From assembly GCF_050320075.1 (NCBI RefSeq), contig NZ_CP190018.1: a stretch of 64,000 nucleotides of DNA; one strand, 5' to 3'. The stretch is from Escherichia coli (GTDB taxonomy: Bacteria; Pseudomonadota; Gammaproteobacteria; Enterobacterales; Enterobacteriaceae). A program made the position numbers and the translations under genes. Position 1 is the first letter of the stretch. The number at the start of each line of letters is the position of its first letter. Below are positions 21,742 to 22,408 of this stretch, piece after piece. The notes beneath the pieces are model-generated. The model ran no database searches. It was given only the letters and a program-made list of their open reading frames with translations, and was not told the DNA's origin.

Positions 21742-22065
21742 TTACAGCAGCACCTCCAGCCCGTGTTTTTGCACAATGCTGAGCAGTTTTAATGAAATGC
21801 CATTGGGGCGTTTAGCGCCACTTTCCCATTTTTGTACAGTTGAAACGCTGGTATTGAGATAGTGAGCGAAGACGGGCTGACTCACTTTTAATTTTTCCCG
21901 CAGTGCTTTTATCTCAACAGGTTGTAAGTCTTGCACGCTGGTCAGGCAGGCTTTGTCAAAAGTACGCATCGTTTCGGCAGAAATCGCATCGACGCTGGAC
22001 AATCCAGCCGCTGCGCTGTGAATAGCCTCAAATGCAGGACTTTTAAATTTAGTTTTTGCAGTCAT
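21742..22065 (-). CDS. HTH (XRE/NadS-like) antitoxin, HigA-type
   Basis: 107-aa ORF with C-terminal HTH (VSTVQKWESGAKRPNGISLKLLSIVQKHG); lies downstream of and overlaps the toxin gene by 17 nt. Confidence 0.7.
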   Translation of the reverse strand: MTAKTKFKSPAFEAIHSAAAGLSSVDAISAETMRTFDKACLTSVQDLQPVEIKALREKLKVSQPVFAHYLNTSVSTVQKWESGAKRPNGISLKLLSIVQKHGLEVLL

Positions 22066-22408
22066 AGCAGATCTCTGTCAGTTCTTTAGTGTTAATCATT
22101 GCTGTCAGTTGGGCTTTCGTCAGGAAGGCATAATGCTTTGCAAGTTCACGAAACCCAGCCAGTTCCTGACTATTAATGTTCGACATATCCTGTTTTGCAT
22201 ATAAAAACGTGTAAAACCAATTGATTCCCCCTTTCGCCAGAATAATTGCACGCTCACGATTTTGGTGAAGGCGCTTTTTAAAAACGCCACCGCCAAGTGC
22301 ATCAGCTTTACCTTGTTCCGTTTCTAAAATGGCCCGGCACAACTCTTCATCTGTTATTGCATGAGACCTGGCTTCCCTTGCAAACCATTTGGTTTTAAAC
22401 ACGCGCAT
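22049..22408 (-). CDS. RelE/ParE-superfamily toxin, HigB-like
   Basis: 119-aa ORF; toxin-upstream-of-antitoxin order typical of higBA modules; RBS AGGA upstream of ATG. Confidence 0.65.
   Translation of the reverse strand: MRVFKTKWFAREARSHAITDEELCRAILETEQGKADALGGGVFKKRLHQNRERAIILAKGGINWFYTFLYAKQDMSNINSQELAGFRELAKHYAFLTKAQLTAMINTKELTEICYDCKN

Follow-up and report, generated by a model that had tools for sequence, protein, structure and literature searches.

The gene pair between yicN and nepI

The 64,000-nucleotide stretch of Escherichia coli DNA analysed here (assembly GCF_050320075.1, contig NZ_CP190018.1; in the following, the window) carries between yicN and nepI two overlapping genes, which we consider, with a probability of roughly 0.85, to be a chromosomal type II toxin-antitoxin operon of the HigBA2 / ToxP-AntitoxP family, defined by a toxin of Pfam family PF06296, and which are probably functional. 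This notion is carried by the gene structure, family membership, fold, residue conservation, purifying selection, operator conservation and synteny of the pair, and by a deletion scar in K-12. The pair is already annotated in databases and its family has structural as well as functional prototypes, so that it is an ordinary and already known system; what is added here is its placement in a subfamily, a set of candidate catalytic residues, a putative operator and the direction of the indel at this site. The two genes are laid out as follows.

22049..22408, minus strand: toxin gene, 119 amino acids (aa), from the list of open reading frames (ORFs); PF06296, HigB2/ToxP type
21742..22065, minus strand: antitoxin gene, 107 aa, from the ORF list; match to the helix-turn-helix (HTH) family HTH_3
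22049..22065, minus strand: overlap of the toxin 3' end with the antitoxin 5' end, 17 nt, from the ORF coordinates

The larger ORF, encoding the toxin, precedes that of the antitoxin; relative to the operon, nepI (ATG at 22635) is divergent and yicN (end at 21626) convergent. An earlier note on this DNA, made from the sequence alone, had described a 119-aa ORF followed by an overlapping 107-aa ORF in toxin-first order with a 17-nt overlap, and all of these coordinates are confirmed. All 28 full-length Enterobacterales pairs (119/107 aa) have the same overlap, as do distant pairs from Geobacteraceae and Desulfobulbaceae, which is consistent with translational coupling of the two genes as judged from their sequence. 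That either gene is a chance ORF can be dismissed, given the match of the toxin to PF06296 (E = 7e-41) and ratios of non-synonymous to synonymous substitution rates (dN/dS) of 0.06-0.15 within Escherichia. RefSeq, by way of its annotation pipeline PGAP, labels the toxin "type II toxin-antitoxin system RelE/ParE family toxin" and the antitoxin "helix-turn-helix domain-containing protein" or "DNA-binding transcriptional regulator". In the PGAP annotation the toxin begins with a GTG at 22402, giving 117 aa, but the alternative ATG at 22408 yields the N-terminus MRVFKT, which is kept in all orthologs, matches position 1 of the Pfam profile and has a better Shine-Dalgarno spacing than the GTG, and the RefSeq start is thus probably a minor start-codon misannotation.

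Family, fold and regulation of the two proteins

The toxin scores 139.7 bits against PF06296 ("RelE"; gathering cut-off 27 bits, E 7e-41), with residues 1-113 covering profile positions 1-120 of 120, and has no match at E <= 0.1 to PF09907, the family of K-12 HigB, or to PF05015, that of the Rts1 HigB-like toxins; none of the NCBIfam models matched it. Since a survey of the RelE/ParE superfamily from 2025 places Vibrio cholerae HigB-2 in PF06296, there named "PF_RelE" (PMC11980606), the label "HigB/HigA-like" chosen in the earlier note is correct if it refers to V. cholerae HigBA2, and wrong if taken to mean K-12 HigB/YgjN (PF09907) or Rts1 HigB (PF05015); its more general description of a toxin-first type II module with a RelE-superfamily toxin and an XRE-type HTH antitoxin is borne out. 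An AlphaFold2 (AF2) model of the toxin, built on an alignment of 45 homologs, has a mean predicted local distance difference test score (pLDDT) of 90.2 and a predicted template modelling score (pTM) of 0.84, and when it is compared with the PDB by Foldseek ranks 1-11 are all V. cholerae HigB2 (VcHigB2), with E-values of 1e-3 to 8e-3, template modelling (TM) scores of 0.44-0.61 and about 20% identity. In the register given by hhalign, the VcHigB2 residues K49, R51, R64, Y82 and K84 correspond to K44, R46, R53, Y70 and K72 of the toxin. Of these, K44, R46, R53 and K72 are conserved in at least 90% of the 45 homologs, while at position 70, a tyrosine here, the family commonly has F or Y. When R51, R64, Y82 or K84 of VcHigB2 is replaced by alanine, activity falls 170- to 3000-fold (PMC5416850), and by this alignment K44, R46, R53, Y70 and K72 are candidate catalytic residues of the toxin.

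The antitoxin matches Pfam HTH_3 over residues 52-96 (32.9 bits against a cut-off of 23), which confirms the C-terminal HTH noted earlier, and its best PDB relative by phmmer is VcHigA2 (5JAA_A; E 8e-10, residues 46-102). Foldseek superimposes it on HigA2 with a root mean square deviation of 1.3-1.9 A, 37-41% identity and a TM score of up to 0.81 of the target, and the C-terminal HTH_3 region (residues 46-102) is accordingly predicted to be a HigA2-like DNA-binding and dimerisation domain. Conservation of the N-terminal region extends to Coxiella, with S9, A14, H16, A19, G21 and L22 near-invariant. Its segment of residues ~7-41, which presumably neutralises the toxin, takes the form of two helices with pLDDT 89-95 in an AF2 model of a toxin-linker-antitoxin fusion, in keeping with a folding of this segment onto the toxin. 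Assignment to other antitoxin families was considered and rejected: the MqsA profiles PF15731 and TIGR03830 give 26.3 bits against a cut-off of 30 and 41.1 against 61.8, with the match confined to the C-terminal part of each profile and with no CxxC pairs in the sequence, NadS (NF041265) gives 41.3 bits against an NCBIfam cut-off of 60, and the score for the YiaG-like PRK10072 is likewise below its NCBIfam cut-off.

Upstream regions of the toxin gene, aligned first from six genera and then from 36 loci, share the following elements, the putative -10 being read from the sequence.

22433..22451, minus strand: putative operator, a 19-bp imperfect palindrome TATTGCAC-TTG-GTGATATA, from the upstream-region alignments
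22431..22439, minus strand: putative extended -10, TGATATACT (TGn + TATACT), read from the sequence
22419..22422, minus strand: toxin Shine-Dalgarno AGGA within the conserved block ACAGGAT, from the upstream-region alignments

The family consensus of the operator is TATAGCAC-N3-GTGCTATA, and its core TAGCAC-N3-GTGCTA is recognisable 5' of the toxin in most of the 36 loci, several of which have single-base variants. The right arm of the operator supplies the TG of the extended -10 (TGnTATACT), which is then followed by the ACAGGAT block, and the TATAnT box as well as the GTG before it are conserved in orthologs. Since the palindrome is also present in loci of wholly different genomic context, for example in Yersinia and Pectobacterium, it belongs to the module rather than to its surroundings, and it is found only once in the window. 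The footprinted operator of VcHigA2 is a single 19-bp inverted repeat, TGTACGC-N5-GCGTACA, extending from after the -35 over the -10 (PMC11006873), and the putative operator would thus have the same architecture and a different specificity.

Several signs point to a pair that is kept functional. Within Escherichia the toxin has a dN/dS of 0.10-0.15 and the antitoxin one of 0.06-0.09, and the ratio is low wherever dS can be measured. Furthermore, among 44 loci sampled at one genome per species, the toxin is truncated or a remnant beside an intact 107-aa antitoxin in six lineages (Mixta, Lonsdalea, Ca. Pantoea formicae, Winslowiella, Pectobacterium polonicum and Samsonia), although some of these truncations are possibly sequencing errors, and a truncated antitoxin beside an intact toxin was never seen among them; such toxin-only decay is what one would predict for a toxin that does harm in the absence of its antitoxin. 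By homology with V. cholerae HigBA2 and Coxiella ToxP-AntitoxP we infer toxicity, RNA cleavage, antitoxin binding and repression. The toxin would thus be a RelE-fold endoribonuclease that enters the ribosomal A site and cuts mRNA under translation by means of K44, R46, R53, Y70 and K72, and the antitoxin would be produced from the same transcript via the 17-nt overlap and would wrap and block the toxin with its N-terminal segment. The dimer formed by its C-terminal HTH would bind the single 19-bp palindrome over the extended -10 and so autorepress the operon, and when the labile antitoxin is in short supply free toxin would arrest translation.

A number of observations weigh against this assignment and the details of the proposed mechanism. 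Neither phmmer nor a profile of 45 toxin sequences finds a relative of the toxin in the PDB at E <= 1, because VcHigB2 (5JA9_C) is only a marginal member of PF06296 (34.5 bits, profile positions 8-96), and the link to HigB2 came solely through Pfam, hhalign and Foldseek; of these, hhalign gives a probability of just 9% at an E-value of 0.0036. The fold match is moderate (TM ~0.5-0.6), since the toxin model has an additional C-terminal helix and β-strand (residues 98-115) that are absent from VcHigB2. The Enterobacterales clade of PF06296 toxins has moreover lost about six residues of the Gly/Lys-rich β2-β3 loop (GKGKRGG; toxin residues 47-53), which is kept in VcHigB2, in Coxiella ToxP and in distant relatives. 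The operator arms of E. coli are palindromic in 6 of 8 positions, and a generic scan for sigma-70 promoters and terminators gave no -35/-10 pair for the operon. Finally, our literature search found no paper specific to this E. coli chromosomal copy and no toxicity test or other experiment on it.

A different activity of the toxin, namely that of a ParE-like gyrase poison rather than an mRNA endonuclease, is suggested by the generic RefSeq name "RelE/ParE family toxin" and by the fold that ParE and RelE share (PMC11980606), but it is extremely improbable, since the best relatives in fold and sequence, VcHigB2 and ToxP, are inhibitors of translation or mRNA-cleaving enzymes, the toxin retains a basic/Tyr active site of RelE type, and ParE structures rank far lower in Foldseek (E ~0.85). 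Among PF06296 toxins the core members are without a solved structure, the sole solved member being the marginal VcHigB2 without the C-terminal helix and strand, and the E. coli copy would be a convenient native-host model for them.

Presence, absence and history of the module

The module is single-copy and always chromosomal in 1716 of 5426 complete E. coli genomes, among them O157:H7, O55:H7 and ST69 strains, with alleles that differ by up to ~2.4%, and a K-12-like empty allele is found in 3668 genomes. K-12 has, as the earlier note stated, no gene in the yicN-nepI interval, which measures only ~210 bp there, and the pair is accessory in E. coli, just as had been supposed. The difference between the two alleles, and what remains of the module in the short one, can be located as follows.

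21702..22535, no strand assigned: variable segment of 834 bp, replaced by a 42-nt filler in K-12-type genomes, from pairwise alignment
22306..22324, no strand assigned: stretch of the toxin gene surviving in the K-12 filler, a probable deletion scar; 17/19 nt, same orientation

The same note had taken the pair to be "inserted" at this site as a "strain-specific addition", and this is not borne out. Orthologous pairs of 119/107 aa with the 17-nt overlap occupy the nepI-yicN slot in Citrobacter koseri, C. freundii, C. amalonaticus, Klebsiella oxytoca, K. michiganensis, K. indica and the Escherichia cryptic lineages, and in Salmonella the orthologous pair adjoins nepI. Between E. coli and C. koseri the nucleotide identity is 73-77% for the module and 76-79% for the yicN and nepI flanks, and dS between genera is saturated for the module. 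The 17/19 match of the K-12 filler to the toxin gene is equalled in 2 of 1000 shuffles, and it is the only significant one, since no significant match of the filler to the nepI-proximal 60 nt of the module was found. Empty-site strains with flanks ~4% off K-12 carry the identical filler, which points to one deletion event. From the synteny, the flank-like divergence, the scar and the common filler it follows that K-12 most likely lost the module, which corrects the direction of the indel: the strain of the window did not gain it. The module would accordingly be an old resident of the nepI-yicN spacer in Enterobacteriaceae, from which one old deletion, with its left end beside a repetitive extragenic palindromic (REP) element, would have removed it in one E. 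coli lineage, the empty allele now being present in about two thirds of the genomes, K-12 included.

A recent, strain-specific insertion of a mobile toxin-antitoxin cassette into an empty yicN-nepI spacer might nevertheless be argued from the absence of the module from K-12, from its GC content of 43.6% against 52-53% in the flanks, and from its Enterobacterales relatives, some of them plasmid-borne, which do move horizontally: one clade of the module, found in Enterobacter, Edwardsiella, Erwinia and Pectobacterium, has 92-99% amino acid identity at a dS of ~0.17 across families, which indicates horizontal transfer of that clade. The shared slot, the saturated inter-genus dS with a divergence as in the flanks, the allelic differences within E. 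coli at single copy in all 1716 carriers, and the toxin-gene remnant in K-12 are however at odds with such an event, as are junctions without integrase, transposase, direct repeats or tRNA, and we regard it as quite unlikely and largely refuted. What does count against an undisturbed history at this site is that the module tree is not cleanly congruent with the host phylogeny and that the C. koseri toxin is nearer to that of Pectobacterium (85%) than to that of C. freundii (76%), and vertical descent at the nepI-yicN slot is thus likely, but not proven. Relatives on plasmids, sought by tblastn, are mostly those of rhizobia, Coxiella, Legionella and Pseudomonas.

Two further E. coli alleles should be mentioned. 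That of HS-02 (NZ_CP172818.1, 2377-3355), with 78.5% identity and a toxin that is "frameshifted" in RefSeq, was considered as a decay intermediate and rejected on account of homopolymer smearing over ~600 bp; the region looks like an assembly or basecalling artefact. SC434 (NZ_LR778142.1, 2540-2570) has a third allele, in which a larger deletion has taken all of the intergenic region together with the 5' end of nepI, a gene annotated there as partial.

At the other end of the module, beyond the antitoxin, two repeat elements are found.

21635..21701, plus strand: REP-like palindromic element on the 3' side of both yicN and the antitoxin gene, with an exact REP core (21674-21699); from a core match and inverted repeats
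21718..21734, plus strand: module-specific 17-nt inverted match (88%) to the REP arm 21672-21688, from an inverted-repeat search and folding

The REP core at 21674-21699 is exact and had no chance matches in shuffles, and the only match in Rfam is a sub-threshold one of naRNA4/REP325 type (33.9 against 59.5 bits). A REP element had been reported to bracket the pair upstream; the element is there, but it lies 3' of the operon, and because K-12 carries it too it is not part of the variable segment. Together with the REP arm, 21718-21734 folds into a long hairpin just beyond the antitoxin stop codon (minimum free energy -37.5 kcal/mol, z = -2.47), which probably serves as a stabiliser or as a terminator for both directions. 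It is exactly between the shared REP and the module-specific inverted REP-like arm (21656-21701 and 21702-21741, a pair resembling a bacterial interspersed mosaic element) that the K-12 deletion has its left junction, and REP structures may have set the endpoint of the deletion.

On the other side of the module, beyond nepI, lies an island with iatC/air, eilA and eip/sip genes. At 24020-35149 and beyond, it encodes an inverse autotransporter adhesin (IatC/Air) of 3709 aa, in which Ig-like repeats are numerous and nearly identical, followed by eilA, a HilA-family regulator, and type III secretion effector/translocator-like genes, including an IS1-split sipB. The nepI-iatC junction occurs in 747 of the 5426 E. 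coli genomes and the stretch from the toxin to iatC is contiguous in 746 of these 747, but the suggestion that the module stabilises the island finds no evidence here, with ~970 genomes carrying the module without the island; relatives of the module in Citrobacter and Klebsiella are likewise without such an island. The nesting of island carriers within module carriers is most simply explained by shared ancestry. As a separate observation, the 3' end of nepI (23600-23819) is unusually polymorphic across E. coli, its identity to the window being 90-95% in 1000 genomes and 80-90% in 499, which suggests recombination or allele replacement at the island boundary.

A contribution to phage defence, which had also been proposed, is equally without evidence. 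PADLOC-DB 2.0 has no family for the toxin and gives only generic HTH matches for the antitoxin, and no genuine phage-borne copy is known from our searches, the sole match being a mis-filed 515-kb Salmonella contig, which was rejected. That the pair is primarily an anti-phage abortive-infection system accords with its accessory nature in E. coli and with the discussion of some RelE/ParE-superfamily toxins as defence toxins (PMC11980606), but is in poor agreement with these negative results as well as with the lack of a defence island around the pair, whose neighbours are housekeeping transporters, and with a long syntenic residence that is atypical of fast-turnover defence loci; we therefore consider it very unlikely. 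It might instead be imagined that the antitoxin now serves as a domesticated transcription factor, of nepI or the adjacent island for instance, with an attenuated toxin and loss of any role in addiction or stress. Of the two proteins the antitoxin is indeed the better conserved, with 85% identity to C. koseri and 55% to Coxiella where the toxin has 73% and 31%, the toxin of E. coli is placed on a long branch with ~70% identity to all others, the decay seen in several lineages strikes the toxin alone, and the operon is divergent from nepI. Such a loss of toxin function is nonetheless unlikely, given that the toxin retains the low dN/dS mentioned above (0.10-0.15) and its five catalytic residues intact, that the operator is confined to one site in the 64 kb, ~185 bp from the nepI start codon, and that the promoter-proximal region of nepI is unaltered in empty-site strains.

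Returning to the view of the pair as a toxin-antitoxin operon that K-12 has lost, one may go further and propose that the module has been kept in the nepI-yicN slot since before Escherichia, Citrobacter, Klebsiella and Salmonella split, under strong purifying selection with the antitoxin being the more conserved, and that its presence and absence in E. coli are an old balanced polymorphism arising from a single deletion. This extension is doubtful, but if true it would imply a host-level function rather than purely selfish addiction, for example regulation by the antitoxin, or a control of translation that is triggered by stress and tied to purine-nucleoside efflux. The polymorphism, with 1716 genomes against 3668, is in any case a clean natural experiment on the fitness effect of a chromosomal toxin-antitoxin module.

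Elsewhere in the window, a block of low GC content at 8500-11900 (33-40% against 51-58% in its flanks) lies between ilvBN and uhpA and holds ORFs of 431 aa (8752-10047, plus strand) and 496 aa (10302-11792, plus strand), neither of which has a Pfam or PADLOC match. A genome with identical flanks has two "hypothetical proteins" of 160 and 489 aa annotated in this block, and it looks like an uncharacterised two-gene accessory insert; ilvN and uhpA we take to be adjacent in K-12.

Comparison with known toxin-antitoxin systems

Toxin-first order is common to several systems that are otherwise remote from the pair in the window. E. coli MqsR/MqsA has this order and the C-terminal domain of MqsA resembles the C-terminal HTH of the antitoxin, but MqsA has an N-terminal zinc-binding CxxC domain that the antitoxin lacks, and the toxin does not belong to PF15723. 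In Proteus vulgaris Rts1 HigB/HigA (PF05015) the order is likewise shared and HigB is a ribosome-dependent mRNase, but the toxin of the window has no PF05015 match, and toxins of the VcHigB2 type have an active site and a mode of neutralisation unlike those of Rts1 HigB (PMC5416850). K-12 HigB/HigA (YgjN/YgjM, PF09907; PDB 5IFG and 6KML) shares toxin-first order, a RelE-superfamily toxin and an HTH antitoxin, and yet its toxin is of another Pfam family and is matched by Foldseek only at E 0.04-0.06, with a TM score of ~0.31 and 9% identity.

The best fold match for both proteins is V. cholerae HigB2/HigA2 (VCA0468/0469; PDB 5JAA, 5JA8 and 8A0X). HigB2 shares PF06296 and the five active-site residues with the toxin, HigA2 consists of an N-terminal neutralising segment and a C-terminal HTH dimer, an arrangement that the sequence of the antitoxin suggests for it as well, and both operons have a single 19-bp palindromic operator over the -10, which in the window is putative. 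HigB2 is however a marginal PF06296 member that lacks the C-terminal helix and strand found in the toxin, and at ~20% identity the two are undetectable to each other by phmmer. The operators likewise differ, TGTACGC-N5-GCGTACA for HigA2 against TATAGCAC-N3-GTGCTATA for the family of the window, and the base-contacting residues R68, E71, N72 and R77 of HigA2 align to S75, Q78, K79 and A84 of the antitoxin. VcHigBA2 furthermore resides in a superintegron cassette, unlike the copy in the window.

The closest experimentally tested relative found is ToxP/AntitoxP (CBUA0028/CBUA0027) of the Coxiella burnetii plasmid QpH1. It is plasmid-borne and functions as a plasmid addiction system, whereas the copy in the window is chromosomal and syntenic across genera; its genes overlap by 4 nt rather than 17 nt, and ToxP keeps the β2-β3 loop GKGKRGG that the toxin has lost. 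ToxP is, like the toxin, a full-length core member of PF06296 (164 against 140 bits, profile positions 1-120 in both), with 31% identity over the whole length (E 5e-18), and it has the C-terminal helix and strand as well. For AntitoxP the identity to the antitoxin is 55% over its full length, the N-terminal segment included (E 7e-37), and toxin-first order and an HTH antitoxin are common to both pairs. ToxP is toxic and inhibits translation, AntitoxP rescues and binds it, and AntitoxP alone as well as the complex bind the promoter (PMC10098735). The ToxP mutant K79E is furthermore non-toxic (PMC10098735), and in a BLASTP alignment K79 is matched by K72 of the toxin, one of its five candidate catalytic residues.

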